From: an uncultured delta proteobacterium
GTDB taxonomy: Bacteria; Desulfobacterota; Desulfobacteria; Desulfobacterales; UBA2156
DNA length: 64,000 nt
NCBI GenBank assembly: GCA_963736855.1
Contig: CAVTQK010000021.1
Location: 224,001-288,000, forward strand
Reading direction: 5' to 3'
The position numbers and the translations under genes were made by a program. Shown one piece after another: positions 14,516 to 33,358 of the stretch. The notes beneath the pieces were generated by a model, which did no database searches, was not told where the DNA came from, and saw only the letters and a program-made list of their open reading frames with translations. Positions within the stretch are counted from its first letter, which is position 1. Each line of letters begins with the position of its first letter.

Positions 14516-15511
14516 TCAGCGCTTGAAATCCAACACCAGACTGCGAGTGGCCTTGGAATGGTCGGCGCCGCTATCATCAAAAACAGCGATAGCGAAGCTG
14601 AATCTCTTGCGGACGTCGAAGGCGACATCGTCTTCCTGGCCGGTGTTGAATTTTCGGTGCAGCATGACCGTCCAGCGGCCGGTGGCATACCGGCTGTCGA
14701 CCTTGACATCGAACCGTGATCCGCTCGGCTTCACGGGGAGGCGGTAGGGGATCACGTCGCCCGCCTTGAAGATAGAGTAGTCCGTGATGGGGACGGCTTC
14801 CTCCAGGAGCAAGAACCCGAGCACCGAAGGTTTGCGAGCAGGATCCTGCATGTAAAGCGGGTGGGAACCGTCGGGGGTTTCATTTTTAACATCCCCGCCG
14901 CTGCCCGCATCGTTTCTCCGGCCGGTTTCGCGGTAGGACCCGGACGGATTGCCCGCCACGGTGAGCCATCCGTCATCGGCATGTCGGTAGGGCGCCGAGC
15001 GAGCTGCCTTCCAATGCCAGAGATCGCCCTTTTCAGACGGGCTTTCCGTGGATAGGTTCCACTTGTTACGGGGCAGATCCGCCGGGCTATGACAGACGAC
15101 CGTACAGCTGCGCGATGAAAAATAGTTGATCCGTTCGATTTCAAACAGTAGCGCTATCCGGTCTTCGTCCCCCCTGAGGTGAACCCATTTTCCCCCGTCA
15201 AACTGCCACGACTCCTTGGTGACGCTGTAGGTCGGATCAGCCCAGCTGAGCAGGAAGTAAAGTTCGCTGTCCGTATAGAGGGCCCGGATCGAAACTATTT
15301 CCTTGACGTCGGCCATCTCCAGGCGGCCTGCAACAGGAACCTGACCCGGAGCGGCACGCTGCCAGGCAGGGTCATCGATCCCGGCCGGCGGTGTCTTGAC
15401 ATACCGGGCGGTTATCGTCATGACTCCGGCATCATCCGGAGAGGGTGCCGCCGCGAACACAATGGCAGCGCCCAAAAGTGCAGCGATCCCCGCGATCAAC
15501 CACTTAGACAT
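14516..15511 (-). CDS. Periplasmic EB_dh/DMSO-reductase-type heme-binding protein with CX3CH motif (paralog 2)
   Basis: Signal peptide; W-D-T, DEDRIAL, CTVVCH, DLWHWKAAR, GRWTV..RK, DDVAF, FAIAVFD. Confidence 0.8.
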   Translation of the reverse strand: MSKWLIAGIAALLGAAIVFAAAPSPDDAGVMTITARYVKTPPAGIDDPAWQRAAPGQVPVAGRLEMADVKEIVSIRALYTDSELYFLLSWADPTYSVTKESWQFDGGKWVHLRGDEDRIALLFEIERINYFSSRSCTVVCHSPADLPRNKWNLSTESPSEKGDLWHWKAARSAPYRHADDGWLTVAGNPSGSYRETGRRNDAGSGGDVKNETPDGSHPLYMQDPARKPSVLGFLLLEEAVPITDYSIFKAGDVIPYRLPVKPSGSRFDVKVDSRYATGRWTVMLHRKFNTGQEDDVAFDVRKRFSFAIAVFDDSGADHSKATRSLVLDFKR

Positions 15512-15531
15512 GGCCCACCTCTTTCAGTGCC

Positions 15532-16611
15532 TTAATGTTCAGGCGTCACGAAGTGCTCGATATACCCCATGACGGACAGAACCGCCACTGCGGCCAGAAC
15601 TAGTGCCGCCGCAACCATCACGCCTATGCGCTTGGAAGGACGGCGTTCGGACGTGCGGTCCAGGAAGGGCAACGCCCCAAGTAAAAATACCAGCCCCCCG
15701 GGAATGATCGCCGATCCGAGAACCATGAACGGGCCTTTAAAAATCGAGACCAGTTGGTTCAGAAACAACACCCACCACTCCGGGCGGGGAATAAACGCAG
15801 AATCGGTCGGATCGGCCGGATCACCCAAGGCAGCCGGCCATTGCCAGGCAACCAGGCCCAGTGCGATCGCCGACACAATAAGAACCGCCAGCCAGCGGTT
15901 GAAAATGGCCGGCATGAAAGGAACTTTCGGCCTTGGGGTCGCATTGGCCGACAGGGGTCCCGAAAGCCCCCGGGTCGCCATTAAATACAGGTGTAAGCCG
16001 ATCAGCAGAACGAGGGCGCAGGGCAACAGGAGGATATGCAGAACATAAAGGCGGGTCAAGGCGACGATTCCAGTCAGGGAGCCGCCGCGAAACAATTGGA
16101 CGAGAAAATCCCCGGCCAACGGAATGGAGCCGATGATGCTGAAGCGCACCTGGGTGGACCAATATCCTTTCTGGTCCCAGGGCAGCAGGTCGCCGGTGAT
16201 GATGAACAGCGGCATCAGCAGAAGAAACAACACTCCCGAGATCCAGACGAGTTGACGCGGCGACTTATAGGCTCCAACGACCAAAGCACGAAGCAGGTGA
16301 AGCCCCATGACCACCAGCAGGAGGTTCCAGGCATAGTGATGCATCCCGCGGACCACGTTTCCCAAAGGCAGGCTGAACTGAAAATAATCGACACTGTCAT
16401 AGGCTGTGCCCGGAACCGGGGTGTAGACAAAGGCCATCAATGCCCCGGAAAGGAACAGCAGGCAAATCAGCGCCAACTGCAGAGCGCCGAAGAACCGGTG
16501 CCAGCAGATGGTGTCGGCCGGTGCCTCCATCTGGAGCAGTTTTGCAAAACCTTCCCGGGCCGCTGCAACGGGCGATCTCTGTTCCGAGCCGTTAAACTCC
16601 GCTTTGGTCAT
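15532..16611 (-). CDS. Cytochrome b of a Rieske/cytochrome b complex (b6 and subunit IV fused)
   Basis: AYDSV, RGMHHY..LHLLR heme ligands, TGDLLPWDQKGYW, LHILLLP..LHL, ADP..PRPEWW (PEWY variant). Confidence 0.93.
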   Translation of the reverse strand: MTKAEFNGSEQRSPVAAAREGFAKLLQMEAPADTICWHRFFGALQLALICLLFLSGALMAFVYTPVPGTAYDSVDYFQFSLPLGNVVRGMHHYAWNLLLVVMGLHLLRALVVGAYKSPRQLVWISGVLFLLLMPLFIITGDLLPWDQKGYWSTQVRFSIIGSIPLAGDFLVQLFRGGSLTGIVALTRLYVLHILLLPCALVLLIGLHLYLMATRGLSGPLSANATPRPKVPFMPAIFNRWLAVLIVSAIALGLVAWQWPAALGDPADPTDSAFIPRPEWWVLFLNQLVSIFKGPFMVLGSAIIPGGLVFLLGALPFLDRTSERRPSKRIGVMVAAALVLAAVAVLSVMGYIEHFVTPEH

Positions 16612-16643
16612 AGCACTCCATCCCGGGTATCCGGTTGATCAAA

Positions 16644-16779
16644 AGGATAGAAAAACAAGCTACACACCGTCAGACCAGGCGCGCGGCATTTTGGAAAGCG
16701 CAGCATATTTAACGATATGTGAGCATTCCCAAACGCCGCGCAACGTCGGATCACATCTGGAGGCGCTATTTTTTAGCCT
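16644..16779. repeat. REP/MITE-like palindromic element inside the bc operon
   Basis: caggcgcgcggc...gcatat-n-atatgt...gccgcgcaacg core with imperfect terminal IRs aggatagaaaaa / tttttagcct. Confidence 0.55.
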
Positions 16780-16783
16780 CTTG

Positions 16784-17774
16784 CTATTTCTTGAACTCGA
16801 GGGTCAAGACCTCTGAATCATACGAATCATGGTCCTTGGAGTCGTCGAACAACGCCATGGCGAAGCTGTATTTCTTCGTGGGATTAAAAGCCACATCGTC
16901 ATCGTGTCCCGGTGTCTATCTTGCGGGAGAGAATTACCGTCCATGTGCCGTCGGCATAACGGCTGACGGCCTTGATGTCAGCGAACGACCCTTCCGCGGC
17001 TACCGGCATCCTGAAAGTGACGACGTCGCCGGCCTTGAAGACTGAATAGTCGGTGATTTCAACTGCGTCCGCCGCCAGCAGGATGCCGTTCTTGCCGAAT
17101 TTCTTGCCCGGGGCAAGCATGTACATGGGTTTGGACTTGTCAGTGGTCATGTTTTGCTTGTCGCCGCCCTTGCCGTCATCCCCCTTACGGCCGCCCTTGG
17201 TGTCGCTGATTTTGGCCAGGTAGCCGTCATCGGCGTAGCCGGCAGGGTCGGAGCGGGCCGCCTTCCAGTGCCACAGGTCGCCTTTCTCGGCATCGGTCGC
17301 GGTCCCGAACTTGCCCTCCTTGGCGTTGGGCGCTCCCGGCGGGACGTGGCACGTCACCGCGCAGCCCTTGGTGGCGAAGTTGTTGATGCGGTTGATCTCG
17401 AACAGAAGCGAAATCCGGTCCTCGTCGCCCTTCAAGTGGGTCCAGGCCTTCCCGTCGAACTTCCAGGCCTCCTTGGTCATGCTCTGGGTGGCATCTTTCC
17501 AGTTGAACCAAAGGTAGATTTCATTGTCCGTAAAGACGGCTTTGGTGTTCACAGCCGTTTTTTTGCCCGCGAATATCTCCTTGCCGTCGAAGGGCACCTC
17601 GAGCGCCTTGATTTTCACCCACACGGGGTCATCCAGACCGGTGGGGGCGGCTTTCGAGTAAGCGGCGGTCAAGGTCTGTTTGGCGGCCCCAGTGACGTTG
17701 TTTGAGAAAAAAACCAAGCCAAGTACGCTCAGCAGGACACACGTCAGGACACCCAGTTTCATTGGTTTCTGCAT
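16784..17774 (-). CDS. Periplasmic EB_dh-type heme-binding protein with CX3CH motif (paralog 1), one frameshift near 16909
   Basis: CAVTCH, DEDRISL, DLWHWKAAR; removing one G gives TGHDDDVAFNPTKKYSFAMALFDD..LEFKK*, collinear with paralog 2 (~329 aa). Confidence 0.8.
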
Positions 17775-17808
17775 CGAATACCTCCTTCGGCCCGATGCCG
17801 GGCGCGGG

Positions 17809-18321
17809 TTAAAGTGTAATTTGAACCAACAGCTTGCCCTCTTCTACCTTGTGCGGAAGGAGCGAAAGCGGCTTTTTCGGCGGTCCGGATGCCGGTTGTC
17901 CTTCCGGGTCGAACCGGCCGGTGTGGCAAGGGCACTCGAACATTCGGGTGTCTTTTCTCCAGATGACATTGCAGGCCAGATGCGAACAGATTGAAGAAAA
18001 GACTTTGACGCCGTGCTGGGCATCGGCCTTGGCCCAGACAAACCCCCGCTGTGGGAGGTCAACCCAGCCGTCCTTCACCATGAACTCAAAGGACAGCATG
18101 CTGAAATCATTCGGGGTCAGCATGTCTGCTTTGCCGAAATCGACCCATTTGCCGACGCCTTTTTTAAGAGAGGGGATAACAATGGTCGACACCATGGGGA
18201 TGGCCGCCAGAACGGCCGCGCCGCCTGCTAGAACAGAAGTCGTGATGAAGGTGCGGCGCGAAATGTTGAACTGATTTTCCACCGTGGGTTTTTGAGGAAG
18301 GGTGAGAGGGTTCTCGGCCAT
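17809..18321 (-). CDS. Rieske [2Fe-2S] protein
   Basis: Tat motif SRRTFI; boxes CSHLAC and CPCHTG; GPP motif. Confidence 0.95.
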   Translation of the reverse strand: MAENPLTLPQKPTVENQFNISRRTFITTSVLAGGAAVLAAIPMVSTIVIPSLKKGVGKWVDFGKADMLTPNDFSMLSFEFMVKDGWVDLPQRGFVWAKADAQHGVKVFSSICSHLACNVIWRKDTRMFECPCHTGRFDPEGQPASGPPKKPLSLLPHKVEEGKLLVQITL

Positions 18322-18790: not shown

Positions 18791-21463
18791 TCAGGCGGCT
18801 TTCTCGATCCTCACGGCGCAAATTTTGTATTCGGGGATTTTCGACACGGGATCAAGCGCACCAATGGTTAACTTGTTCACCGCCGCTTCATAGAAATGGA
18901 ACGGCACAAAAGCAACGCCACGATCAGTAGTGTCCGAAACCAGAGTCTTTATTCTCAATCTTCCCCGTCTTGAGACGATATTGACGTATTCTCCGCTCGC
19001 AACACTCAGCGCCTTCGCGTCCTCCACATTGATCTCCGCCAATGCTTCGGGATAAAGACGATTCAAAGCGGTTCCTTTGCGACTCATCGTTCCCGTATGA
19101 TAATGCTGATGCACCCGCCCTGTCGTCAAAACGAACGGATATTCCGCATCGGGAAGCTCGGCGGGCGCTTTATAATCGATGGCGAAAAACGATCCTTTTC
19201 CCTTGGTAAAGCCTTTCATGTGCAGGACTGGAGTGCCTGGATGTTCCAGTGTTGGACACGGCCATGTCAAGCTTTCTTGATCAAGCCGATCATAAGTAAT
19301 ACCGCCATAACTTGGGGTAAGAGCATTGATTTCCGTCATGATTGCGGAGGGGTCCGCATAGTCCATCTCATATCCCATTTCCTTGGCAATGGCGGTGATA
19401 ATACGATGATCTTCCCAGGCTTCTCCGGGAGCATCCAATGCCTTGCGCACCCGCAACACCTTGCGCTCGGTGTTCGAGAAGGTCCCCTCCTTTTCAGCAA
19501 AACACGCACTGGGGAGAACCACGTCGGCAAGCTTGGCCGTCTCCGTTAAAAAAATGTCCTGCACAACAAGGAAATCCAATGCCGACAGGCTCTTTTCAAC
19601 ATGGTGCATATCGGCATCGCTCAGCATCGGGTTTTCGCCCATGATGTACAAGGCCTTAATGCCTTTCCCGGCTGCCGGAACCATCTCGGTAACGGTCATG
19701 CCAACTTTTCCCGGGAGTGAGGGCACCTTCCAGGCTTTGGCGAATTTGTCTCGTATGGCAGCATCGGTTACGGCCTGATATCCTGAAAAAACATTGGGCA
19801 AGCCGCCCATATCACATGCGCCCTGAACGTTGTTTTGGCCGCGAAGCGGATTGACACCGCCGCCCGCAACCCCGACATTTCCGCAGAGCATTGCCAAGGC
19901 GGCAAGAGACTTTACGTTGTCCGTGCCGGTGGTATGCTGGGTTATACCCATAGTGTATAGAATCGACCCGGGTTTTTCTGTTCCATACAACCGCGCCGCG
20001 GCAATCATAGCTTCTGCCGGAATACCCGTAATGCCGGACACATAATCAGGCGTATATTTAGCGACACACTGCTTGAGTTCTTCATAACCGGTTGTACGCT
20101 CATCAATGTAGCTCTGTGCTTGAAGGTTCTCATTGATGATTACATTCATAAAACCGTTTATCCAGGCCACATCTGTGCCGATTCTCTGACGCAGCCATAG
20201 ATGGCAAATATCCACCAGCTTGATCCTTCTCGGATCGACGACAATCAGCTTGGCACCGTTCTTCGTGACGGCTTCATGAATGTAGTTGGCAATAATAGGA
20301 TGGTTTGACGTGGTATTGGTACCGGTAATGAGAATGACCTTTGACTTCAATACATCCTGGAAGGGATTGGTCATCGCTCCGCTTCCAAACGTGGCGGCAA
20401 GCCCTGCCACCGTTGAGGAGTGTCAGAGACGGGCGCAGTGATCCACATTGTTGGTGCCGATCACCGCGCGCATGAATTTCTGAAACAGATAATTTTCTTC
20501 GTTGGTGCATCGAGCAGAAGAAAAACCCCCGATGGCGTCGGGACCATGATCGCTTTTGATCTGGCTGAACCTTCTGGCGATCAGGTCAAGGGCTTCATCC
20601 CAGCTGGCTGATTCGAACTGACCATTCCTCTTGATAAGCGGCGTGGTCAGTCGCTGATCACTAGCGATGAATTCATAGCCGAATCGGCCTTTGACGCACA
20701 GGCTGCCCTTATTGACGGCCACATCGCTCTTTCCGACCACACTCGCCACCCGATTGTCGAGAACATTGAGTTCGATTTGACACCCGCAACCACAATAGGT
20801 GCAGGTGGTGACCACCTTTTTGGTGACGAACCCTCTCGCCTTGAGTGGGCTGAGGTTCTCGGTCAGCGCCCCGGTCGGACAAACCTGCAAACATTCTCCG
20901 CAAGACACGCACTTCTCGGGATCCACCGTCAGTTTCAGCACCCCATCGGTATCGACAAATTCCAGCGCCCCCACACCCTTGATTTCTCGACAGGCGGAGG
21001 CGCAACGCTGGCAAAAGACGCAACGATCGCGCCAGTATTTAATCAAGGGAGTGGCATAGGCCACCTCAACCCTCTCCTTGGGCTCCTCATAGGCATCTGC
21101 TCTGACTCCTAATTCGAACACCAGATCCTGCAGCTTACAGGCACCGGCCTTGTCGCAGATCGGGCAATCCAGGGGATGATGGGCCAAGAGGTGCTGCAAG
21201 GATTTCCGCCGCATATCGGCGAGCATGTCCGAATTGGTCGCCACCGCCATACCGTCGGCCACCGAAGTCTTGCAGGCTTCCACCGGGGTGTCTTTGCCTT
21301 CGACTTCGACCACGCAGAGTTTGCAGGAGCCTATTGGATTCAATCGTTCATGGTAGCATAGGGTCGGTATCTTGATCCCCGCGTTCTTGGCCGCTTGCAG
21401 AATTGTGCTATCCTGCTGAGCGATGACTTCGTGACCGTCAATTGTCAACTTGACTGTGCTCAT
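18791..21463 (-). CDS. fdhF: Selenocysteine-containing formate dehydrogenase alpha subunit (FdhF type) with NuoG-like Fe-S N-terminus, ~890 aa
   Basis: ORFs 20423-21463 and 18791-20410 are in frame across TGA: HCARL-U-HSSTVAGLA; [2Fe-2S], HxxxCxxC, 2x[4Fe-4S], CTYCGCGC; PLRGQNNVQG; no Tat signal. Confidence 0.93.
20393..20425 (-). promoter_or_regulatory. Sec UGA codon and bacterial SECIS-like hairpin
   Basis: UGA CAC UCC UCA AC GGUGGCAG-GGC-UUGCCGCC: stem begins 11 nt after UGA with a G-containing loop. Confidence 0.75.
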
Positions 21464-21579
21464 TTTTATTTGCTCTCTTCGCTACCTGTTTATCACTCAC
21501 CCAAGACCTGCCGCCAAGCCTCGGCCCAGTTCGTGTCGGCTAATGATCCACAATCATTCCCGGAACCTTGGGCTTAGGC

Positions 21580-23058
21580 TTACAGCAAGGTCAGAAAGGA
21601 CAGTTTGACCATGGCAATATAAGTGGATGGAAAGAGCCCCAGCGACAACACACCATAAGCTGAAATGAAGATCGCGATCACCAGGGCCGGCGAAAACACG
21701 CTTGCCGGCATTTCTTTCTCGACGGCCGCTTCTGGAGCCTGCATATACATGGCAACGGTCACCCGAAGATAATAGTAAACCGACACCACGCTGTTGATCA
21801 CCCCAATAACGGCAAGGCCCACAAAACCTTCCTTGATCGCGGCGGAAAAGATATAGAACTTGCCCATAAAACCACCTGTGGGCGGAATCCCTGCCAGGGA
21901 AAACAAGAACAGGCTCATGGCCAGAGCTGCGATCGGATGCCGGTAACCGAGTCCCCTGAAATCTTCAATGTGGACTCTTTGTTCGCCCTTGCCGGCAAGC
22001 ACGGTGATCACCGCGAAGGCCCCGATATTCATACAGGTGTAGGCGAGCATGTAATAGAGGATGCTGGTGATCCCCTGCTCGCCTGCCGACAGGAATGCTA
22101 CCAGCACATAGCCAGCGTGGGCGATGCTCGAATAAGCGAGCATCCGCTTGATATTGTCTTGCACCAGGGCAATCACATTGCCGACGCTCATGGTCAGCAC
22201 GGCCATCACCCAGATCAGCATGGTCCAGTTGGTCTGCAGGGACGGCAGCGCTTCCATGAAGATCCGCACAAATGCGGCGAACGCCGCCGCCTTGGGCCCG
22301 GCGGACATGAACGCCGTAACCGGGGCGGGAGCGCCTTCATACACGTCCGGGGCCCACATGTGAAACGGCACCGAGGCAGTTTTGAAGCCGAAACCGATCA
22401 CCAGCAGTGCCATCCCCATGACGATGGTGGGCCCGCCGAAGCCGGCGGCGGCGATATACTTGGCAATGGCTGGAATCTTGGTGGTGCCGGTAGACCCATA
22501 GATCAGCGCGATGCCGTAAAGCAGAAAGCAGGTCGCAAACGAGCCAAGCAAAAAGTACTTCAGGGCCGCTTCGTTGGACACCATGCGGGTACGAGTATAT
22601 CCGGCCAGCACATAGAGCGATATCGACATCAGCTCAACCCCGAGAAAAATGGTGATCAATTCGGCTCCGCTCGCCATGATCATCATCCCCAGGGTCGCAA
22701 AAATGATGAGCGCATAATACTCACCATGTTGCATAGCTTCGTTATCCAAATACCTGATGGAAATGAGGATGGTCAGTCCAGTGCCGAGCAGAAAGATCAA
22801 TTTGAAAAAGCGGCAGTAATTGTCCACCACCCACATGTCATTGAAGGAATACGCGATTTCCCGGAGCTCGAAGCTCTGGGGCTGGGTTAAAACCACCGTA
22901 ACGGCGCCTATCACCCCGATCAGACTGACATAGCCGTAATAGCCCCTGAGCCTTGTGGGGGCAAAAGATTGGATCAACAGAATCAGCAACGAACAAACCA
23001 CCAGAATCAACTCTGGAGCTATGGCGCTCAAATTGATGCTGCTCATGACCTGTTCCAT
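21580..23058 (-). CDS. nuoN: NADH-quinone oxidoreductase subunit N
   Basis: EYY, EAALKYFLLGS, FKTASVPFHMWAPDVYEGAP, KRMLAYSSIAHAGY. Confidence 0.95.
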   Translation of the reverse strand: MEQVMSSINLSAIAPELILVVCSLLILLIQSFAPTRLRGYYGYVSLIGVIGAVTVVLTQPQSFELREIAYSFNDMWVVDNYCRFFKLIFLLGTGLTILISIRYLDNEAMQHGEYYALIIFATLGMMIMASGAELITIFLGVELMSISLYVLAGYTRTRMVSNEAALKYFLLGSFATCFLLYGIALIYGSTGTTKIPAIAKYIAAAGFGGPTIVMGMALLVIGFGFKTASVPFHMWAPDVYEGAPAPVTAFMSAGPKAAAFAAFVRIFMEALPSLQTNWTMLIWVMAVLTMSVGNVIALVQDNIKRMLAYSSIAHAGYVLVAFLSAGEQGITSILYYMLAYTCMNIGAFAVITVLAGKGEQRVHIEDFRGLGYRHPIAALAMSLFLFSLAGIPPTGGFMGKFYIFSAAIKEGFVGLAVIGVINSVVSVYYYLRVTVAMYMQAPEAAVEKEMPASVFSPALVIAIFISAYGVLSLGLFPSTYIAMVKLSFLTLL

Positions 23059-23085
23059 AAATTATCGCCCTTGACCCTTGGCAAG

Positions 23086-24651
23086 CTATTGAAGGTCCAC
23101 TCTCGCAAACACATTGTTCAGCCGGCTCGGCTTAGCTCCGTCCAGGTGAGCAGTTATCTGCGGGTTCACCATCTCCAGGAGATGATCCACGGAAGCGTCC
23201 ATCGTCTTCAAAAACGGTTTAGGATATACGCCTATCCAGACAATGAACAAAACGATGGGCAGCAAATAGGCATATTCCCGCCCGGTCATGTCCTTCAGGT
23301 CCCGATTCTCAGCCTTGGTGATTTGGCCGTACATGACCCGCTTATACATCCACAGAAGGTACACCGCACCCAGGATCAAACCGATGGTGGCAACCAAACC
23401 ATAGCCCAGCGACGACTTGAAGGCACCTATCAGAATCAACAGTTCACCGACGAAGCCGTTGAGTCCGGGCACACCCATCGAGGACAAAGCCACCAGCAAG
23501 AACAGGGCCGCGAACGCCGGCATGACTTTCATGATTCCGCCGTATTCCGAAATGAGCCGGGTGTGGCGCCGTTCGTACAACATCCCAACAATCAAGAACA
23601 GTGCGCCGGTGCTCAAACCGTGGTTGATCATCTGGATCATGCTGCCCTTTAAACCGTCAGCGTTCAGAGCGAACATTCCCAGCATGCAGTAACCCAGATG
23701 ACTGACGCTTGAGTAGGCCACCAGCTTCTTGATGTCGTCCTGAGCGATGGACACCATCGCGCCGTAAATGATCCCCACCACTGACAGAGCCAGGACGATG
23801 GGCATGAAATCGATTGTGGCCTGCGGGAAAATCGGCAGGCAAAAGCGCAGAAATCCATAAATTCCCATCTTCAGCAACACTCCGGCCAGAATCACACTCC
23901 CCGCCGTGGGCGCTTCCACGTGGGCATCGGGAAGCCAGGTGTGGAACGGGAACATCGGCACCTTGATGGCAAAAGCCACAAAGAATGCCAGGAACAGCCA
24001 TATTTGAATGTTGCCCGGCAGACCCAGATTATAATAGTCGAGGATATCGAAGGTGTAGGTCCCGGTGGCCTTAAAGTGCATGAAGTAAAGGACCAGAATG
24101 GCCACCAGCATCAGCACGCTGCCGCTCATGGTGTATATGAAAAACTTGACCGCCGCGTAGATTCGCCGTGGCCCACCCCAGATCCCGATGATGAAATACA
24201 TGGGGATCAACATCACTTCCCAGAACACGTAAAAAAGGACGAAATCCAGCGCACAGAACACGCCGATCATCCCGGTTTCCAGGAACAGCAGGGAGGCCAT
24301 GTAGCCTTTCACCCTCTCCGTCACCGCCGTCCAGGTCGAAAGGATGGCCAGGGCGGTGAGAAAGGTGGTAAGCAGGACCAGCAACAGACTGATCCCGTCG
24401 ATGCCCATATGATAGCGAATGGCGAACTGGCTGATCCAGGGAACGTCTTCCACGAATTGCATTTCCCAGGTCCCGCTATCGAACATGAAATAGAGCGGCA
24501 GGGAAACCACAAAGGTTACCACGCTGGTACTGAATGCCACCCATCGTATCAGTTCATGGCGGGTGCTCTTGATCAGACAGATCGCAACAATCCCCACCAG
24601 GGGCAGATAGGTGATCAAGGACAAAATCGGCAAATTAATTATATTTATCAT
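23086..24651 (-). CDS. nuoM: NADH-quinone oxidoreductase subunit M
   Basis: [48 protein letters not shown]. Confidence 0.95.
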
Positions 24652-24655
24652 AGAC

Positions 24656-26423
24656 TCATATCAAGGAAGTAAATAAGTAGTAGCCGAGGATGACGACGCC
24701 GCCAATCAGCATCGTCGCCGCATAATTCCGAACCAGTCCGCTGGCGGTAACGCGGATCACGCCCGCCAGGCCAATGAAAAACTGAGCGACACCGTTAACC
24801 AACCCATCGATCGCACGGACATCGATAATCCGCGCGAGAAAACCGGAGAAGAACAGAGTGAAGCGGGTGAACCAGGTATCGTAAATGTTGCCCAAATAGC
24901 TATCGCTCGAAGCCAGCGGCTTTCTCGCGATCCACATGAATACCCGGCTTCCCTTGCGGTATACCCAATCGGTATCGATGCTGATGGTGGGTTCCGGATC
25001 GAGCTTTTTGAGCAGCATGAAAAAGCCCAGACCGGTGAACAGGAGGATACCCAAGGCGCTGGTTACATGATCACCGGTATAAGGTTCGAAGTGCACCGGA
25101 AAGGGAAGCAGGTTGTACAGCGGCCCGGGAAGCACACCGATCCCGATGCAAAAGAAGGCCGCCATGCCCATGGCCAGCAGCATATTAAGCGGCGGTTCCT
25201 TGGCTTCCAACCCGGAATCTTTACCAAAAAACATGTAGTAGGGAAGCTTCAAACCCGTGTGCAGGAATGTACCGGATGAGGCCATGGTCAGCAGTAGGGC
25301 CACCATCGGCCGATGGTCATGAGTGGCGCCGGAAACCACCATCGACTTGGTGACAAATCCACTGAACAAGGGGAAGGCCGAGATCGCAAACCCGCCGATC
25401 ATATAGAGCACCAACGTGATCGGCATGGTTCGGTACAAGCCTCCCAGTTCGGTGAGTTTCCTGCGCCCTGTCATTTCGATCACCGCGCCGGCTCCCATAA
25501 AAAGGAGGCCCTTATAGAGGATGTGGGCGAAGGCGTGGGACACCGAACCGTTCAGGGACATCTCCGTGCCGATCCCGACTCCGGCCACCATGTACCCGAC
25601 CTGACTGACTATGTGGTACGCCAGCAACCGTCTGCAGTCGTTTTCCAGCACCGCGTAAACAACCCCGTACAGGGCCATGATCGTTCCCAGATACACCAGC
25701 AGTTCAGTGCCTGGGAAAGACCCGCACCAAAACGTACACAGCCGTTTTGGTGGTGAATGCCGACATGAACACCGATCCGGTTACGGTCCCTTCCGGATAG
25801 GCATCGGTCAGCCAGGCGTGCAGCGGTGGCACCGCGGCATTTATAATAACCCCCACCAGCATCAGGTAGAAGGCCAGGCTGCCGTCTTGATCGAGAGGGC
25901 CCACCAGCATCGACTTGGTGCTGAGATAGTGGAGGATAATCCCTCCAAGCAGACACACACCGCCGAAGGTGTGCACCAGCAGGTACCGGTAACCGGCCCG
26001 GATCGCATCAGGTTCACGCCGGGCAAACACCAGATAGGCGGAAGCGAAGGCCATCAGTTCCCAGAATACGAACAGGGTCAAGTAATCCCCGGCGAACGTC
26101 ACCCCCAGCGCCCCTCCCACGTACAGGAAAGCGGCCACGTGCTGGCCCTGATCGTTCACGTGCAGGGCATACACGATGCCGATGAACGACATAATGGCGA
26201 AGACCCAGCCGAACACGATGCTGAGCTTGTCCACGGCACCGAAGGTCAGCACCATGCCAAGAAAGTCCCAGGACCAGAAGGTGCCCGCGGACATGGCGAA
26301 CACAGAAGCGACCCCGAGCAGGGGGATCAGCATCAGATAGGCTTTCCGCACCTTCCCGCGCAGAAATGGGATGAGAGCTGCTCCGAAAATGTAGAATACG
26401 GACGGGTGGAACCAATCAGTCAT
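24656..26423 (-). CDS. Mrp-type Na+/H+ antiporter D-like subunit with NuoL-like C-terminal helix; one frameshift near 25714
   Basis: ATG at 26423 (MTDWFHP); [40 protein letters not shown]-terminus IDGLVNG...SGLVRNYA; extra C in VFP/GTELL junction. Confidence 0.85.
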
Positions 26424-26673
26424 TGTAGTAATCCTCGCCCCGCATGACGCCGCACTGGTGGCCGATGAATTTAGAGACCAGAACGATAACAGCGCAGGCC
26501 ACAAACCCGTACAAGGCGCCCCATCCGGGCATCTTATCCCAGATATACATGGCATGCTCCCGGTGAACCAGAAAGTCCGCTACTACTGTAAGCCCCAGAG
26601 CCACGTAACTGAGCTTTTTCAAAGTGCCGGCATTTGCTGGGTTGCCTATGTAAAGGACGACCCTCTTGATCAT
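26416..26673 (-). CDS. Small two-TM membrane protein
   Basis: 85 aa, overlaps both flanking antiporter genes; WDKMPGWGALYGF, MRGEDYY. Confidence 0.75.
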   Translation of the reverse strand: MIKRVVLYIGNPANAGTLKKLSYVALGLTVVADFLVHREHAMYIWDKMPGWGALYGFVACAVIVLVSKFIGHQCGVMRGEDYYND

Positions 26674-28169
26674 CGGATCACCTCCCTGGCGAGACTCAGA
26701 AAGTAGTCGGGGAATATCCCGATCAATAGTGAGATGGTCGCAGTCAGCACCAGCGGCACCACCACCATCTTGATTTCCCTGACGTCCTCATGTTCGTGAT
26801 GGTCATGACCGGAGCCAGTGGCCACCGCCGCCACTCCCTTGTCCTTTTCGAAGAAGGCCTTGTAAGTGATGGGCAGAAAATAGGCTGCATTCAGGACCGT
26901 GCTGGCCAGCAAGACCATTAGTATGGGCACCGATCCGGACTCGATTGACCCCAGGGCCAGAAACCATTTGGTCGTGAACCCGGCGGCAGGGGGCACCCCG
27001 ATCATGCTGAGGGAGGCGATGAAAAACGCCGCCATGGTCCAGGGCATCTTCTTTCCGATACCGGAGAGTTGGCTGATTTCGGTCTTGTGCGCGCTGCAGT
27101 AAAGGGAACCGGCACAGAAAAACAGGGTGATCTTGGAAAAAGCGTGATTGGCGATGTGCATGATACCCCCCACCATGCCGCTCGGCGTCAGCAAGACCGC
27201 CCCCAGGATAACGTAGGAGAGCTGGCTCACGGTCGAATAGGCGAGCCGCGCCTTCAGGTTGTCCTTGGTGAGGGCGATGATCGAAGCGGTGATTATGGTG
27301 AAGGAGACCACATAAGCCGCGGTAATGCCGAGGTTGATGCGGCTCATCAAATCAATGCCATAAACGTTGAACACCACCCGCAGGATCGAAAACACCCCGA
27401 CCTTCACCACGGCCACCGCATGGAGCAGAGCACTGACCGGGGTCGGCGCCACCATGGCGGACGGCAGCCAGTTGTGGAAAGGCATCACCGCGCCTTTGGC
27501 GAACCCGAACAGGAACAAGAAGAAACCGACGAACAGGAGCCACGATCCCGGCTGATTGCTCAGCAGCCCATGGCGCTGGAAATCCGTCGTACCCGCCACC
27601 ATGTAAACGATGATGATACCGGACAGCAGAAAGGTCTTGGACATACCGAGCAGGTACAGGAAGTATTTCTTCGCCCCTTCCTGGGCTTCCGGCGTTTCCT
27701 TGTGACCGACCAGGGGCACCGTAGCCAGACTCAGGATTTCGTAGAAAGCGAACAGGGTCACCAGATTGGCGGAAAAGGCGACGCCCATGGTGGCCGACAT
27801 GCTGACCGCGAAGCAGCTATAGTAGCGGGTCTGTGCATGCTCCTTGCCGGCCCGCATGTAACCGATGGAGTAGCAGGTGGTAACGATCCAGAGGAACGAT
27901 GAAACCGTCGCAAATAGCAGGCCGAAGGCGTCGACTCGGAACTTGATATCGATCCCCTGGTAGAAGCCGCTCACCAGGGTGTATTCGATGTTGTGCCCGG
28001 AAAAGATAGCCGGCGCCATGGACATGACGATGGAAAATTTCACGACGCCGGCAAGGATGGACCAGAACTCGCGCACATTGGGCCGATCCGCGGTCCCCAG
28101 AATCAGTGGCACCGAAAGAAGAGACGCCAGCACGGCCAGCAATGGTTTTATGGACAGAATGGTTTCCAC
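26670..28169 (-). CDS. Monovalent cation/H+ antiporter subunit D family (MrpD-like) protein
   Basis: FYEILS, KGAVMPFHNWLPSAMVAPTPVSALLHAVAVVK, KARLAYSTVSQLSY, HAFSKITLF. Confidence 0.88.
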   Translation of the reverse strand: METILSIKPLLAVLASLLSVPLILGTADRPNVREFWSILAGVVKFSIVMSMAPAIFSGHNIEYTLVSGFYQGIDIKFRVDAFGLLFATVSSFLWIVTTCYSIGYMRAGKEHAQTRYYSCFAVSMSATMGVAFSANLVTLFAFYEILSLATVPLVGHKETPEAQEGAKKYFLYLLGMSKTFLLSGIIIVYMVAGTTDFQRHGLLSNQPGSWLLFVGFFLFLFGFAKGAVMPFHNWLPSAMVAPTPVSALLHAVAVVKVGVFSILRVVFNVYGIDLMSRINLGITAAYVVSFTIITASIIALTKDNLKARLAYSTVSQLSYVILGAVLLTPSGMVGGIMHIANHAFSKITLFFCAGSLYCSAHKTEISQLSGIGKKMPWTMAAFFIASLSMIGVPPAAGFTTKWFLALGSIESGSVPILMVLLASTVLNAAYFLPITYKAFFEKDKGVAAVATGSGHDHHEHEDVREIKMVVVPLVLTATISLLIGIFPDYFLSLAREVIR

Positions 28170-28176
28170 GTTTTCG

Positions 28177-28479
28177 TTAACCTTTACTTAGATTGATTTC
28201 GTCCACGTTCACGGTCGCTTTGTTCCGGAAAAGCGAAATGATGATGGCCAATCCCACAGCCGCCTCAGCCGCAGCGACGGTCATGATCATGAACACGAAA
28301 ACGTGACCATCCAGGTTGTTGAGAAAGCGCGAGAAAGCGACAATGGTCAAATTGACGGCATTCAACATCAACTCGATGCACATATAGATGATCAAGGCGT
28401 TGCGTTGTGTGAACACTCCCACCGCGCCGATCGAAAAAAGCACAGCACCCAACATTAAGTATGAGTTCAATGAAACCAT
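28177..28479 (-). CDS. nuoK: NADH-quinone oxidoreductase subunit K
   Basis: [21 protein letters not shown]. Confidence 0.95.
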
Positions 28480-28508
28480 AGGCTACCATTCATGACCCGG
28501 ACGGCGAC

Positions 28509-29027
28509 TCAATCGCGCCCAGAGTCATCAATCCTCCTTTTGGCTAGGATGACCGCGCCGACAATTGCTGCGAGTAACAACACGGAGGCGATTTCGAAAG
28601 GCAACAGGTATTCGGTAAAGAGCATCTTCCCCACCGCCTTCGTGGTGCCGAACGCTTCGTCCACGTTCCCAAGCGCTGCCAGCGAACCGTTCGCCTGGAA
28701 CAGACTCACCATGGTAACCAGCAGCAAGCCCACCACCAACACGCCGAAGACTTGCAGCAGAATGACATTGCCTCCCAGTTTCCCTTCCTTTTCTTCCAGA
28801 TTGAGCAGCATGATCACGAACAGAAACAGCACCATGATGGCGCCGGCATACACGATCAGCTGCAGCACCGCGATCAGATGCGCATCCAGCAGCGCGTACA
28901 ATCCAGCTAGAAAGGACATGGTCGCGACCAGGCTCATGGCGGCGCGCACCGGCCTCTTGTTGGTCACCATCAGCAGCGCCGAGACCACGGCACCGACAGA
29001 GAAGGCGGAGAAAATCAATAATTGCAT
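28509..29027 (-). CDS. nuoJ: NADH-quinone oxidoreductase subunit J
   Basis: QLIVYAGAIMVLFLFVIMLL, YLLPFEIAS; AGGAGG before ATG 29027. Confidence 0.93.
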   Translation of the reverse strand: MQLLIFSAFSVGAVVSALLMVTNKRPVRAAMSLVATMSFLAGLYALLDAHLIAVLQLIVYAGAIMVLFLFVIMLLNLEEKEGKLGGNVILLQVFGVLVVGLLLVTMVSLFQANGSLAALGNVDEAFGTTKAVGKMLFTEYLLPFEIASVLLLAAIVGAVILAKRRIDDSGRD

Positions 29028-29638
29028 TTGGAGTAAATCCTCCTGATGTATTCCAAACGAGCCTTCACACTGTCCTCGGGCCTGAGGAGTTGTTCTTTCG
29101 AATAACGCATGAGGCTCCGGTCCCGTTGCGCCAACCCCCGGTATTCCGAACTCATGACGATGGCCTCCTTCGGGCAAACCTCCTCGCAATAGCCGCAATA
29201 GACGCAACGGGACATGTCGAGGGTGTAGCTCAGCGGATAGCGATCGCCATCGGCCCTTTCCCCGGCCATGACGGTGATGGCCTTGGCCGGACACATTATT
29301 TCACACAGGCCGCAGGCCACGCATTTCTCGGCTCCGTCCAAACCGGCCACCAGAACCGGCCGACCGCGATACGCGGGAGGCAGCACGACCTGCTCTTCCG
29401 GATAGTAGACGGTGAACACCTTGCGCTTCTTGCCGGCCGGCGGGAAGACGAAGCCGATCATATTGATCACGAAATGCTTGCTGGTGACGTACAGGCCCCG
29501 CAGTACTTCGAAAAGGTACAGCTTCTCCCACAAGGTGAGCTCCACGTTCTTCCTCACCTTCTTGGGCTTCAGCGTAGCCGAAGGGACTCCCACCAGCGGA
29601 TGATATTGGGATTGCTCAGAACCTGTCATCTTGCTCAT
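29015..29638 (-). CDS. nuoI: NADH-quinone oxidoreductase subunit I
   Basis: YPEE..YRGRP, CVACGLCEIMCP and CVYCGYCEEVCP. Confidence 0.93.
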   Translation of the reverse strand: MSKMTGSEQSQYHPLVGVPSATLKPKKVRKNVELTLWEKLYLFEVLRGLYVTSKHFVINMIGFVFPPAGKKRKVFTVYYPEEQVVLPPAYRGRPVLVAGLDGAEKCVACGLCEIMCPAKAITVMAGERADGDRYPLSYTLDMSRCVYCGYCEEVCPKEAIVMSSEYRGLAQRDRSLMRYSKEQLLRPEDSVKARLEYIRRIYSKCNY

Positions 29639-30708
29639 AGCACCAGAACCACCAGCCCGGTTATCAGAATGTTGATGAGTGCAAGCGGCAGCAGCATCTT
29701 CCAGCACAGCCTCATGACCTGGTCGTAACGGAAGCGCGGAAGCGTCCAACGAATGGTCATTTGCAGCCAGATGAAGAAAATAATCTTGGCGAAGAAAGTG
29801 GCAACGTTCACCAGCATTGCCAGCAGGGCGGAGCCGTTTGGTCCCGCGAACTGGAACAGGGACAATAATTTCTGATCGCTCACGAAGGGGAGATGCCAGG
29901 CACCGAAAAACAGGGTGGTCACGATCCCACTGATGGTCACGATTTCCAGAAATTCCCCCATCCAGAACATGACGAACTTGAGGCCGCTGTATTCGGTGAA
30001 GTAGCCGGCCACCAGTTCCGATTCCGCCTCGGGCATATCGAACGGCACCCGCTTGTTTTCGGCAATGGCGCAGGTGATGAACAACACAAAACCAAGAGGT
30101 TGGAGAAAAATGCCCCAGTGGAAGAAATTTTCTTGCAGGGCCCCGATCTCTGTGAGCCGCAGGGAACCGTACACCATGATCACACCGATGATGGTGAGGC
30201 CCATGGCTACTTCATAGGAAAGCATTTGCGCCGACGCCCGCAAGCCGCCCAACAGCGACCAGTTGCTGCGCGAAGACCAACCGGCGAGGACCACCCCGTA
30301 GGTGGCGAGCGAGGCCAGAGCGAAAACGAACAGGATGCCCACATCCAGGTCGGCGATCACCAGGTTGACACGATGCCCGAACAGATCGTACTGGCCGCCG
30401 AAGGGAACCACACTGAAGGTGACAATCGCCGGAACCAGACAGATGAACGGCGCCAGGGTATGGAAGAACTTGTTGGCGCCGCTGGGGATGAAGTCTTCCT
30501 TAGCGAGGACCTTGATGGCGTCGGCGAGGGAATGGAACAGGCCGATCGCGGTGAAGCCGAAGATGGCCGCCCGGTTCGCGCCGATCCGGTCCTGCATCAC
30601 CGCGCTTTGCTTTCTTTCGACCCATCCCAACACGGGGGCAAAAAAGCCCAGGTTTACGCTGAATACGAATATAATTTTTGCAAGGGACTCGATCAGGTCT
30701 GCAACCAT
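29635..30708 (-). CDS. nuoH: NADH-quinone oxidoreductase subunit H
   Basis: ERK..QDRIGANR, ADAIKVLAKED, AQMLSYE, PFDMPEAESELVAGYFTEYSG, RWTLPRFRYDQ. Confidence 0.96.
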   Translation of the reverse strand: MVADLIESLAKIIFVFSVNLGFFAPVLGWVERKQSAVMQDRIGANRAAIFGFTAIGLFHSLADAIKVLAKEDFIPSGANKFFHTLAPFICLVPAIVTFSVVPFGGQYDLFGHRVNLVIADLDVGILFVFALASLATYGVVLAGWSSRSNWSLLGGLRASAQMLSYEVAMGLTIIGVIMVYGSLRLTEIGALQENFFHWGIFLQPLGFVLFITCAIAENKRVPFDMPEAESELVAGYFTEYSGLKFVMFWMGEFLEIVTISGIVTTLFFGAWHLPFVSDQKLLSLFQFAGPNGSALLAMLVNVATFFAKIIFFIWLQMTIRWTLPRFRYDQVMRLCWKMLLPLALINILITGLVVLVL

Positions 30709-30710
30709 GG

Positions 30711-31901
30711 CTATCTATCGCATTCTCCGCCGATCATGTTGATCATGTCGAATGTGGGGACGATATCGGCGATCAGCCTCCCCTTCATCAGCCTGGGCAT
30801 GGCGGCGGTGAGGGCAAAACAAGGCGGTCTTACCCGGCATTTGTAGGGCTTCCCGCTGCCATCGCTCACAAGATAGAATCCGAGTTCGCCGTTGGCTCCT
30901 TCGACGGCCGCATAGACCTCGCCGGGAGGCGGCTTGATGCCATCGATAACAGTCTTGAAGTGAAAGATCAGGGAATCGATCCGATGGTAAATGTCTTCCT
31001 TGGGCTGCATCCGATATTGCGGCAGGTCGAGATTGATGGGTCCGTCAGGAAGTTGGCTCAAGGCCTGCTCGACAATCCGCATGCTCTGTTGGATCTCTTC
31101 CATTCGCACCAGGTACTTGTCGAAATTGTCGCCCTTCTCACCGATCGGGATCTCGAAATCCATCCGATCGTAAACCAGGTACGGCTGCGCCCTGCGCACA
31201 TCGTAAGGGACCCCGCAGGCCCGCAGGCAGGGGCCCGTAAATCCATAAGCGATGGCTTCGTCCGCCGGAATGACCCCGACATCTCTCACCCGGTCGATGA
31301 AGATCCGGTTCTTGGTCAGGAGCTTGTCCACATCCTCCCACAAGCGCCGGCACTCCTTGAAGGCCAGCCGGGTCTTTTCCTGAAAGCCGTCGGGCAGATC
31401 ATTCTTGAGACCGCCGATCCGTACATAGTTGACGGTGACCCGCGCCCCACACAGCATCTCGATCAGGTCCCACACCAGTTCCCGCGCTTCCACAAAATAG
31501 AGGAAGGCGGTGAAGGCGCCGAGTTCGAGCCCGCTGGCGGCGACATTGGTTAAATGATCGGCGATCCGCGACAGCTCACAGGCGATCACCCGCAGATACT
31601 GGCACCGTTCCGGGACCTCAATGCCGATCAGCTTTTCCACCGCCAGCGCATAGCCCACGTTGTTGATCAGGGGCGATACGTAATTCAGCCGGTCGGTGTA
31701 AGGGATCACCTGCTGCCAGGTGCCGTTCTCGCACATCTTCTCGAACCCCCGGTGGAGGTACCCGATGTCCACCTTGAGATCGACGATGGTCTCCCCGTCG
31801 AGGGTCGCCAGGAACTTCACTGTGCCATGGGTCACCGGATGCGACGGACCCATGTTGATCACCATGTGTTCGGTGTGCAGATCTTTGGCTAAATCGGACA
31901 T
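30711..31901 (-). CDS. nuoD: NADH-quinone oxidoreductase subunit D
   Basis: NMGPSHPVTHG, GYLHRGFEK, DRLNY, ends GECDR; no CxxC NiFe motifs. Confidence 0.95.
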   Translation of the reverse strand: MSDLAKDLHTEHMVINMGPSHPVTHGTVKFLATLDGETIVDLKVDIGYLHRGFEKMCENGTWQQVIPYTDRLNYVSPLINNVGYALAVEKLIGIEVPERCQYLRVIACELSRIADHLTNVAASGLELGAFTAFLYFVEARELVWDLIEMLCGARVTVNYVRIGGLKNDLPDGFQEKTRLAFKECRRLWEDVDKLLTKNRIFIDRVRDVGVIPADEAIAYGFTGPCLRACGVPYDVRRAQPYLVYDRMDFEIPIGEKGDNFDKYLVRMEEIQQSMRIVEQALSQLPDGPINLDLPQYRMQPKEDIYHRIDSLIFHFKTVIDGIKPPPGEVYAAVEGANGELGFYLVSDGSGKPYKCRVRPPCFALTAAMPRLMKGRLIADIVPTFDMINMIGGECDR

Positions 31902-31925
31902 GTCTCGAAACGACCCGTTGGAGTG

Positions 31926-32408
31926 TTAATTAACCGGCCCGATTAAGGGCTGCCTCTTTTTAATGGGATAGTCCTTCCGCAAGGGATGCCCCTCGAAGCC
32001 TTCGTAAAGAAGAATCCTCCTCAGCTCCGGATGCCCCTTGAAGGTGATCCCGTACATATCGAACACTTCCCGTTCGAACCAATCGGCGGCGACCCAGACG
32101 GAAACAATGGAGTCGATCGTGCAATCGGACTCGGAAACCCCCGCCTTGATCCGCACCCGTCGGTTATGTTTCAAGGAATACATATGGTAGACGACTTCGA
32201 ACCGAGGCTCTCTGCCCAGGTAATCCACCGCCGTTAGATCCATCATGAAGTTGTAAAGAAGCTCTTCATCATCCCTCAGGAACATGCAGATTTCGAGGAT
32301 ATCTTGCTTCTTTACAATCGCGGTGTCGTCGCCTCGATAGGACCGGGTTTCCAGGATCGAGCCGGAAAACCGTTGTGCCAGCTTTTTAAGGGTCACGCTT
32401 GCATCCAT
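31926..32408 (-). CDS. nuoC: NADH-quinone oxidoreductase subunit C
   Basis: DLTAVD, RFEVVY, WFEREVFDMYGI, GHPLRKDYP. Confidence 0.95.
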   Translation of the reverse strand: MDASVTLKKLAQRFSGSILETRSYRGDDTAIVKKQDILEICMFLRDDEELLYNFMMDLTAVDYLGREPRFEVVYHMYSLKHNRRVRIKAGVSESDCTIDSIVSVWVAADWFEREVFDMYGITFKGHPELRRILLYEGFEGHPLRKDYPIKKRQPLIGPVN

Positions 32409-32429
32409 GAACGAAAACTTCCTAAGGGT

Positions 32430-33014
32430 TCATTCCTGCTTCTTCAACATCGAAGTCACCGGCGCCGCACCGCGCGGCCAATCGGACCAGCGTTCCTTGG
32501 CGACCTTCTCCTGCAGCGTCAGCAGGCCGTCCAGCACCATTTCCGGCCGCGGCGGACAACCCGGCACATACACGTCCACCGGAATCAAGGTATCGATCCC
32601 CTGCACCACCGAGTAATTGTCGTAAAATCCACCGGATATCGCGCATACTCCAAACGCGAACACCCATTTCGGCTCGGCCATCTGATTGTACACCTTGACC
32701 AGAATAGGAGCCTGCTTGTGACTGATCGTGCCGACCACCATCAGCAGGTCGGCCTGGCGCGGAGAAAACCGCGGCAATGCGGCGCCAAAACGGTCCAGGT
32801 CGTACTTGGGGCCGGCCACGGACATGAATTCCATGCCGCAACAGGCCGTCACAAAAGGATAAAGGAAGAAGGAATACTTTCTGCTCCAATTGACGGCGGC
32901 CTGCAGTTTGGTCAGAACCACGCTGCCGTCCAAAAGCCGTTCGGGGCCGGCCGAAGCGGACCCGCTTGGGATGGCCTTCTGAGAGGCGCCACTTTTTCCC
33001 AGCGTTATTCCCAT
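32430..33014 (-). CDS. nuoB: NADH-quinone oxidoreductase subunit B
   Basis: TACCGME, YDLDRFG, SPRQAD, VDVYVPGCPPRPE. Confidence 0.95.
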   Translation of the reverse strand: MGITLGKSGASQKAIPSGSASAGPERLLDGSVVLTKLQAAVNWSRKYSFFLYPFVTACCGMEFMSVAGPKYDLDRFGAALPRFSPRQADLLMVVGTISHKQAPILVKVYNQMAEPKWVFAFGVCAISGGFYDNYSVVQGIDTLIPVDVYVPGCPPRPEMVLDGLLTLQEKVAKERWSDWPRGAAPVTSMLKKQE

Positions 33015-33358
33015 TCCAACGCCCCCCTTCTCCACACGTAAATCAAGCCGATCGTCAGAATGAAGATGAATATCATCATTTCAACGAAGCCGAACCAGCC
33101 GAGATTTTTGAACAGCACCGCCCACGGATAGACGAAAACTGCTTCAATATCGAAGATGACGAAGAACAGCGCCACCAGATAAAATTTTACCGAAAACCGC
33201 TGCTTCGAAGAAACGATCGGACTCTCCCCGCATTCAAAAGGCTCCATCTTGTCTGCGAATTTCTTCTTGGGGCCAATCAGGGAGGTGGCTACAATCATTC
33301 CCGCAGCCGTCGCCGCCGCCAGGAACAACATGATCAAGACAGGTATATATTCGCTCAT
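33005..33358 (-). CDS. nuoA: NADH-quinone oxidoreductase subunit A
   Basis: PFECG, FYLVALFFVIFDIE, PWA, GALEWE. Confidence 0.95.
   Translation of the reverse strand: MSEYIPVLIMLFLAAATAAGMIVATSLIGPKKKFADKMEPFECGESPIVSSKQRFSVKFYLVALFFVIFDIEAVFVYPWAVLFKNLGWFGFVEMMIFIFILTIGLIYVWRRGALEWE

Follow-up and report, generated by a model that had tools for sequence, protein, structure and literature searches.

We analysed a complex I-like operon in the window, by which we mean the whole stretch of DNA under study (64,000 nucleotides (nt) of contig CAVTQK010000021.1 from an uncultured delta proteobacterium). The operon lies on the minus strand, running from position 33358 to 18791, and its last gene encodes a formate dehydrogenase (FDH) that contains selenocysteine (Sec). 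The gene order is nuoA-B-C-D-H-I-J-K, followed by D1, an open reading frame (ORF) of 85 amino acids (aa), D2, nuoM, nuoN and fdh, where D1 and D2 are MrpD-like antiporter genes; no nuoE, nuoF, nuoG or nuoL is found in the operon. This is the arrangement, including the lack of nuoE and nuoF, that a preliminary description made from the letters of the window had read. Its features are:

33005..33358, minus strand: nuoA (Pfam Oxidored_q4)
32430..33014, minus strand: nuoB, with the tandem-cysteine motif of cluster N2 (sequence and profile match)
31926..32408, minus strand: nuoC (TIGR01961 above cut-off)
30711..31901, minus strand: nuoD of the quinone type, with HPVTHG and DRLNY and without nickel-iron (NiFe) motifs (TIGR01962 above cut-off; sequence)
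29635..30708, minus strand: nuoH (profile matches)
29015..29635, minus strand: nuoI, with two 4Fe-4S motifs (TIGR01971 above cut-off)
28509..29027, minus strand: nuoJ (profile match)
28177..28479, minus strand: nuoK (profile matches)
26670..28169, minus strand: D1, MrpD-like (PRK08375, 701.6 bits against a cut-off of 663)
26416..26673, minus strand: small 85-aa protein with two transmembrane (TM) helices, of the D1-small-D2 cassette; no family
24656..26423, minus strand: D2, MrpD-like, the terminal module with a long lateral helix, frameshifted near 25712 (PRK12668)
23086..24651, minus strand: nuoM (TIGR01972 above cut-off)
21580..23058, minus strand: nuoN (TIGR01770 above cut-off)
18791..21463, minus strand: Sec-FDH with a NuoG-type N-terminus, the proposed head (TIGR01591, 846 bits against a cut-off of 666)
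20378..20425, minus strand: Sec UGA codon with a hairpin 3' of it that resembles a selenocysteine insertion sequence (folding of the window and 17 linked loci)

The arm genes from nuoA to nuoN overlap or are separated by at most 29 nt, and 116 nt lie between nuoN and fdh. A search of Rfam over positions 14000-36000 gave no match, and the 85-aa protein falls only into unnamed clusters of the ESM Atlas. The tandem cysteines of NuoB, together with HPVTHG and DRLNY in NuoD, are those of the quinone-reducing module of a quinone-type complex I, as had been noted from the motifs. Both NiFe CxxC motifs are missing from NuoD, which sets the operon apart from formate hydrogenlyase with its NiFe large subunit. 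Nor is this a canonical 14-subunit NADH:quinone oxidoreductase, since subunits E, F and L are absent and the NuoG model scores 406 against its cut-off of 470.

The FDH itself is a protein of 890 aa with an in-frame TGA at codon 347 (context DHCARL-U-H) and, as first described, without a twin-arginine leader. About 12 nt downstream of the UGA lies the hairpin, and each of the 17 linked loci that were folded has the same pair of features. At its N-terminus the protein keeps the ligands of five clusters, namely the 2Fe-2S cluster N1b, the histidine-ligated N5, two ferredoxin-type 4Fe-4S clusters and N7, and this five-cluster N-terminus together with the FDH domain matches FdsA (PDB 6TG9; E 1.5e-207), E. 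coli FdhF being matched as well. The Sec-His pair, the arginine of RGQNNVQG and the N7 ligands are all present, as in molybdenum- or tungsten-dependent (Mo/W) enzymes of the FdhF/FdsA type, and the genome from which the stretch comes (G000, the host genome below) holds selA, selB, tRNA-Sec and fdhD; the protein is thus predicted to be an active Mo/W formate dehydrogenase. Its N5 motif, HPLDCPICDKAG, resembles that of NuoG and NDUFS1 rather than that of FdsA, and a sister FDH outside any nuo operon (L113) has a divergent N5 motif. In a plasmid search with the FDH, every match was below 60%.

To follow the operon across genomes, we collected related loci (L-numbers) through D1, which gave 139 relatives, and used the best 80 loci. 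D1 lies in a nuo context in 72 of these, and D1, D2, nuoM and nuoN occur together in 56. Thirty-two loci are close (D1 identity at least 76%), and after dropping seven with contig-end cuts, 25 are informative. The Sec-FDH follows nuoN in 19 of the 25, a conserved linkage that is not due to chance. Two more have the same FDH with an SfrB-like gene ahead of nuoA, and a further two have, at that position, an SfrB-like flavoprotein with a catalytically dead FDH homologue; more distant arms carry nuoEFG (15 loci). This GltD-like flavoprotein with a NuoF-type 4Fe-4S domain, which we take to be SfrB, is the usual partner of the window FDH's relatives, as in SfrAB-type enzymes. The same arm appears to swap four heads: FDH alone, FDH with SfrB, dead SfrA with SfrB, and NuoEFG. 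The genes downstream of fdh vary among loci, and the operon is patchy, being present in one of five genomes of the same genus. In L012 (10820-11640) nuoN directly precedes a gene that in L014 and L017 comes after fdh, which suggests a clean fdh deletion. Another FDH (49-51%, DHCART-U-H), similar to a lone paralogue of the host genome described below, is encoded divergently beside nuoA in L006, L032, L036 and L037 and may be an alternative head.

The converse search covered 400 genomes of the phylum, scoring the top five FDH candidates in each. Two genomes carry a window-type FDH (at least 73%), and in each of them the arm's NuoD is encoded some 10 kb upstream on that contig. A third genome has the arm only; two of the three were among the loci counted above.

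The next tier of FDHs forms a sister group. Among 27 sister loci fetched, from 76 genomes with matches, 21 are linked to nuo genes, mostly as nuoD-sfrB-fdh-nuoH in operons with three antiporter genes, at the position where nuoG would stand. Two loci read nuoN-sfrB-fdh, and in L094 and L102 the order is nuoD-fdh(Sec)-nuoH, with the flavoprotein absent. The remaining loci comprise three sfrB-fdh pairs without nuo, two with neither partner and one on a contig too short to tell. In a tree from a quick IQ-TREE search, with support by the Shimodaira-Hasegawa-like approximate likelihood ratio test (SH-aLRT) only, the window FDH falls in a clade of 20 rows (SH-aLRT 100), all tied to the arm. The two basal rows of this clade keep sfrB, and its sister group (91) consists of nuoG-slot FDHs. 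The likely history is that an FDH-SfrB head came first and that SfrB was later lost. Some nuoG-slot FDHs have cysteine in place of Sec (L088, L092, L103 and L104, the first two also without the following histidine) and others are wholly degenerate (L095 and L111), a series that grades from active FDH into dead NuoG; the automatic label 'dead' was wrong for L088 and L092, with cysteine and no following histidine, and for L096, which has Sec. In L086 and L091 a nuo-free sfrB-fdh(Sec) pair stands beside a TetR-like regulator, etfAB and a gene resembling a membrane Fe-S oxidoreductase (by eye).

The N1b domain may carry a trace of this history. All 34 heads that adjoin nuoF or sfrB have an arginine following the second N1b cysteine, and so do the solved NuoF-partnered proteins. 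Among the nuoN-fdh members, it is kept in 3 of 18 and lost in 15, the window FDH having lysine instead. Family f93, an independent lineage with loss of sfrB, shows the same pattern, with arginine in 3/3 loci that have sfrB and glycine in 2/2 that do not; the three arginines and the second glycine had been foreseen before those loci were fetched. We infer that this arginine faces NuoF. Identity in the N1b domain is 63%, against 78% in the Mo domain, within the FDH-only group, whereas in partnered FDHs the values are 71% and 67%. The host genome also has a lone, frameshifted FDH paralogue (C13:4453-7134, plus strand; about 50%) with a NuoG-type N5 and glycine at the arginine position.

By its sequence, the membrane arm is a member of the already described rhizobial green complex I, in which NuoL is replaced by two MrpD-like subunits (accessible text of PMC9040806). 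The preliminary description alluded to variants with extra antiporter subunits and left this one unnamed. The cassette nuoK-MrpD-small-MrpD-nuoM-nuoN, with nuoM and nuoN kept and nuoL absent, is that of a plasmid operon of Ensifer adhaerens, with identities of 59% for D1, 54% for the small protein, 61-63% for D2, 54% for NuoM and 43% for NuoN, and the Ensifer D2 shares with the window D2 an asparagine in TM7 and a lateral helix of 76 aa. The orthology does not extend to the NuoEFG part of the whole enzyme: Ensifer has nuoE, nuoF and an 855-aa NuoG without the Sec/Cys-His active site (31% to the window FDH), whereas the window operon has neither E nor F, and its G-like subunit is a Sec-FDH that is still intact. 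Record titles place carriers of the arm in Desulfobacterota, Nitrospinota, Nitrospirota, Marinimicrobia and Verrucomicrobiota.

As had been proposed as a check, we compared the antiporter subunits in a tree, where D1 and D2 form clades of their own; these also take in copies from true Mrp operons and are separate from NuoL, NuoM and NuoN. D1 has a complete charged axis (TM5 Glu, TM7 Lys, TM8 His and Lys, TM11 His and Lys, TM12 Lys). The TM7 lysine, part of the charged axis according to the accessible part of PMC8165549, is found in all 62 NuoN, 74 NuoM, 82 D1 and 17 NuoL sequences, but it is asparagine in 66 of 66 D2 sequences, and a fifth proton, or any extra pumping by D2, is doubtful for this reason. 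The lateral helix, measured on the sequences between two anchors after dropping seven anchorless rows, is 76-77 aa long in 60/62 D2 against 51 aa in 13/15 NuoL. The D2 helix is thus about 26 aa, or roughly one module, longer, which fits four antiporter modules within one arm, an arrangement we consider likely. Of the extra ion translocation first proposed, the four modules in one arm are supported and the additional pumping is doubtful. As stand-alone proof we rejected helix length, because an extra repeat occurs in 2/15 NuoL and 2/62 D2. L021 and L064 have a further helix repeat of 26-27 aa in D2 (104 aa) with no additional antiporter gene seen, and in L021 about 900 nt separate nuoM from nuoN. 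A third nuo operon of the host genome (C17:18123-28868, minus strand) is headless, and its NuoL has a lateral helix of 76 aa despite a single nuoM. In L075 (2204-5000) the green arm is scrambled in gene order and is preceded, by eye, by a PhsA/PsrA-like molybdoenzyme instead of NuoG.

Coupling to Na+, which the Mrp-like genes had suggested as a possibility, is rejected. The Na+ module of Mrp, MBH and MBS is a separate set of small subunits (PMC8165549, accessible text), and no MrpE, MrpF or MrpG homologue is present in the operon, nor was the MrpG family found in the host genome; a Mrp operon that shares the cassette (L045) does carry the module. One dissenting structure, cited in the same source, proposes that Na+ passes through MrpD. 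With no sodium module found and the TM7 lysine missing from D2, neither extra nor Na+ pumping is supported.

Taken together, the linkage to the arm, the sister enzymes in the nuoG slot, the NuoG-type N5 and the loss of the N1b arginine argue for the FDH as the electron-input head, as the preliminary description had supposed, and an FDH-headed architecture as such is probable. The FDH would dock on NuoC, NuoD and NuoI in the manner of NuoG. By homology, electrons would pass from formate through the Mo/W-Sec site, the N7 equivalent, the two ferredoxin clusters, the histidine-ligated N5, N6a and N6b of NuoI and N2 of NuoB to quinone. In ordinary NuoG, N7 lies about 20 Å from N4 and is disconnected (PMC10068793, accessible text); here the second ferredoxin cluster would span that gap, and N1b would be a dead end left over from the SfrB-like flavoprotein that was lost. 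D2 likely pumps little, which would give about 4 H+/2e.

From these observations we narrowly favour a green-type complex I with the Sec-FDH as its only input subunit, which would oxidise formate in the cytoplasm and pass the electrons to quinone with proton pumping. The likely role in this sulfate reducer would be the oxidation of cytoplasmic formate from the Wood-Ljungdahl pathway; the host genome contains dsrA, acsB and fhs, which makes both cytoplasmic formate and a quinol sink plausible. Our calculation gives 346 mV between formate and menaquinone, allowing at most 4.6 H+/2e at 150 mV against 3.3 for NADH, where the potentials are taken from the accessible text of PMC9304861 and the values for proton-motive force, low formate and methyl-menaquinone are assumptions. 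More tentatively, though with nearly as much in its favour as against it, the complex might be a direct, reversible formate:quinone ion pump in which NuoG is a working Sec-FDH and all pyridine-nucleotide modules have been shed, having arisen at least twice, once on the four-module green arm and once on a three-module arm.

Several points weigh against the favoured reading. No menaquinone pathway gene (mqnA/D, mqnC, mqnE, menB) was found above cut-off in the host genome; mqnE was found in G081, a carrier of the same operon. Another gene follows nuoN in 6 of the 25 close loci, two of which are headless at the locus, and the nuoN-fdh gap is not conserved (116 nt in the window, with lengths of about 30-250 nt among relatives), so that a promoter is possible; a promoter and terminator scan of the gap found no site, with promoter-like sites overall at chance level (14 versus 10.3). 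Of the three nuo-free sfrB-fdh sister loci, two retain the NuoG-type N5 motif. All four N1b cysteines are retained in every FDH-only member, and at matched divergence the ferredoxin domain falls too (62% versus 75%, with 62% versus 79% for N1b), so N1b is not alone in being relaxed. The arginine persists in five FDHs without an adjacent flavoprotein and in L014, which comes from a genome lacking a full-length SfrB; since the sequences are related, its pattern amounts to about two independent events. As an observation in its own right, the men and futalosine pathways are missing from what was found in a host genome with three complex I operons, a bc-like complex and Dsr, and three genes of the UbiA family are present.

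The direction of flow hinges on D2, because 4 H+ allow forward flow and 5 H+ favour reverse. An FDH-headed complex working mainly in reverse, as a quinol:CO2 reductase driven by the proton-motive force that would pass electrons from acyl-CoA or succinate to formate at 5 H+/2e through the fourth antiporter, is an unlikely alternative. In its favour, five protons per electron pair need 375 mV at 150 mV, above the formate/menaquinone span, extra-pump complexes have been proposed for reverse electron transport (PMC9040806, in its accessible part), and many carriers are titled Syntrophobacteraceae. Against this, the TM7 lysine is missing from every D2, the same arm bears NuoEFG in the 15 distant loci and in rhizobia, and the host has Rnf-like genes besides the quinol sink implied by dsrA.

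We consider it distinctly unlikely that the FDH docks and, through N1b, still has a partner (a flavoprotein or a ferredoxin) whose gene lies elsewhere, making the complex a formate, NAD(P)H and quinone hub like that of the sfrB-fdh operons. The intact N1b ligands would suit such a hub, three long NuoF-like genes and numerous GltD-like domains occur in the host genome, and an SfrB orthologue (66-71%) is encoded elsewhere in 2 of the 19 genomes with fdh after nuoN, both among the three that keep the N1b arginine. Yet each of the three NuoF-like genes adjoins its own NuoG-like gene. No SfrB orthologue was found in the host genome, which, like 14 of the 19 genomes, has no SfrB-like match at 1e-150, and the loss of the arginine in 15/18 members also speaks against a retained partner.

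That the FDH is soluble and merely co-located, the 11-subunit arm being fed by ferredoxin or another head, is improbable. Headless 11-subunit complexes are common (PMC11238625, accessible text), 4 of the 25 informative close loci have the arm without a window-type FDH, and the gap before fdh varies as described. Nevertheless, sister FDHs fill the nuoG slot itself, twice without any other head, and among the candidates scored in the 400 genomes the window FDH clade was not found without the arm.

Finally, one extra base near 25712 breaks the D2 frame and the assembly has a stop after the shift, but a genuine frameshift that leaves this strain's complex inactive is highly improbable: among the 69 related loci with both D2 halves (11 of the 80 lack one and were left out), 68 have an unbroken frame, and so does a 98%-identical contig from another run (X2), which does not have the extra base. 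Across 647 kb of the assembly that is covered by paralogues, we counted about 85 apparent frameshift sites (some maybe genuine pseudogenes), and acsB likewise has a short open frame. In both halves of D2, synonymous changes far exceed non-synonymous ones. The shift is therefore likely an assembly error.

Individual parts of the proposed enzyme resemble known systems. Like the formate hydrogenlyases (FdhF-Hyc of E. coli and Fdh-Mfh-Mnh of Thermococcus; accessible text of PMC8165549), it joins an FDH to a complex I-like membrane enzyme, but those have a NiFe site and make H2, whereas the window has quinone-type NuoD and NuoB and an Fe-S relay fused to the FDH. FdsABG of Rhodobacter capsulatus shares the five-cluster N-terminus and FDH domain; FdsABG and SfrAB differ in being soluble and linked to NAD(P) via N1b, while the window operon has no flavoprotein gene as a neighbour of its FDH, which has lost the N1b arginine and has a NuoG-like N5. 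NuoG/Nqo3 shares the N1b and N5 motifs, N7 and the molybdopterin-type fold, and the homology of NuoG and FDH is established (PMC10068793, accessible text). The canonical subunit, however, has no Mo/W ligand and requires NuoF, and according to the same accessible text purified complex I of M. smegmatis showed no formate activity; the window FDH keeps Sec, histidine, arginine and the second ferredoxin cluster. Nuo-Bfu, the 2M complex I and Complex_I_3 of Manganitrophaceae also have an alternative head or extra antiporter modules, but their heads are flavin-based, and the accessible text of PMC9304861 and PMC9040806 describes no case among them of an active FDH serving as the only head. Nor did we find, in a literature search whose coverage leaves out most subscription journals, any description of an active FDH heading a quinone-type complex I. 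The membrane arm was already known and the new part is the FDH head; the whole is a complex I variant with the FDH as its probable sole head.

Beside the operon, positions 14516-18321 (minus strand) encode a Rieske protein, an EB_dh heme-b protein, cytochrome b and a second EB_dh protein, resembling a bc-like complex in which two periplasmic heme-b subunits replace cytochrome c1. In the window the first of the two EB_dh genes is truncated, and at that point the X2 contig has 141 other bases where the window has 272. We rejected this cluster as a part of the operon, as it lies 469 nt away and has no match in the 80 related loci; it is present in the X2 contig. A second nuo operon of the host genome (C21:166280-180854, minus strand) also has no nuoEFG and is followed by a 272-aa ORF resembling thioredoxin and the NuoF cluster domain and by a 1200-aa fusion of NuoG, GltD and dead FDH, another kind of head.

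The donors of complex I without NuoEFG are a standing open question (accessible text of PMC11238625 and PMC12142623), on which an operon that encodes its own conserved donor module bears directly. If the proposal is right, formate would stand alongside NADH, ferredoxin and F420H2 as a direct donor to quinone-type complex I, and sulfate reducers and syntrophs would have an unrecognised coupling site for cytoplasmic formate. With 5 H+/2e, the complex would be a CO2 reductase driven by membrane potential, and the invariant TM7 asparagine of D2 makes the arm a natural test of the proton number for four antiporter modules. Carriers in culture, going by record titles, are Desulfoferrobacter suflitae DRH4 (L028) and Desulforhabdus sp. 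TSK (L027). The homology of NuoG and FDH would become testable in a working enzyme, and the complex would be a living model for the descent of NuoG from formate dehydrogenase.

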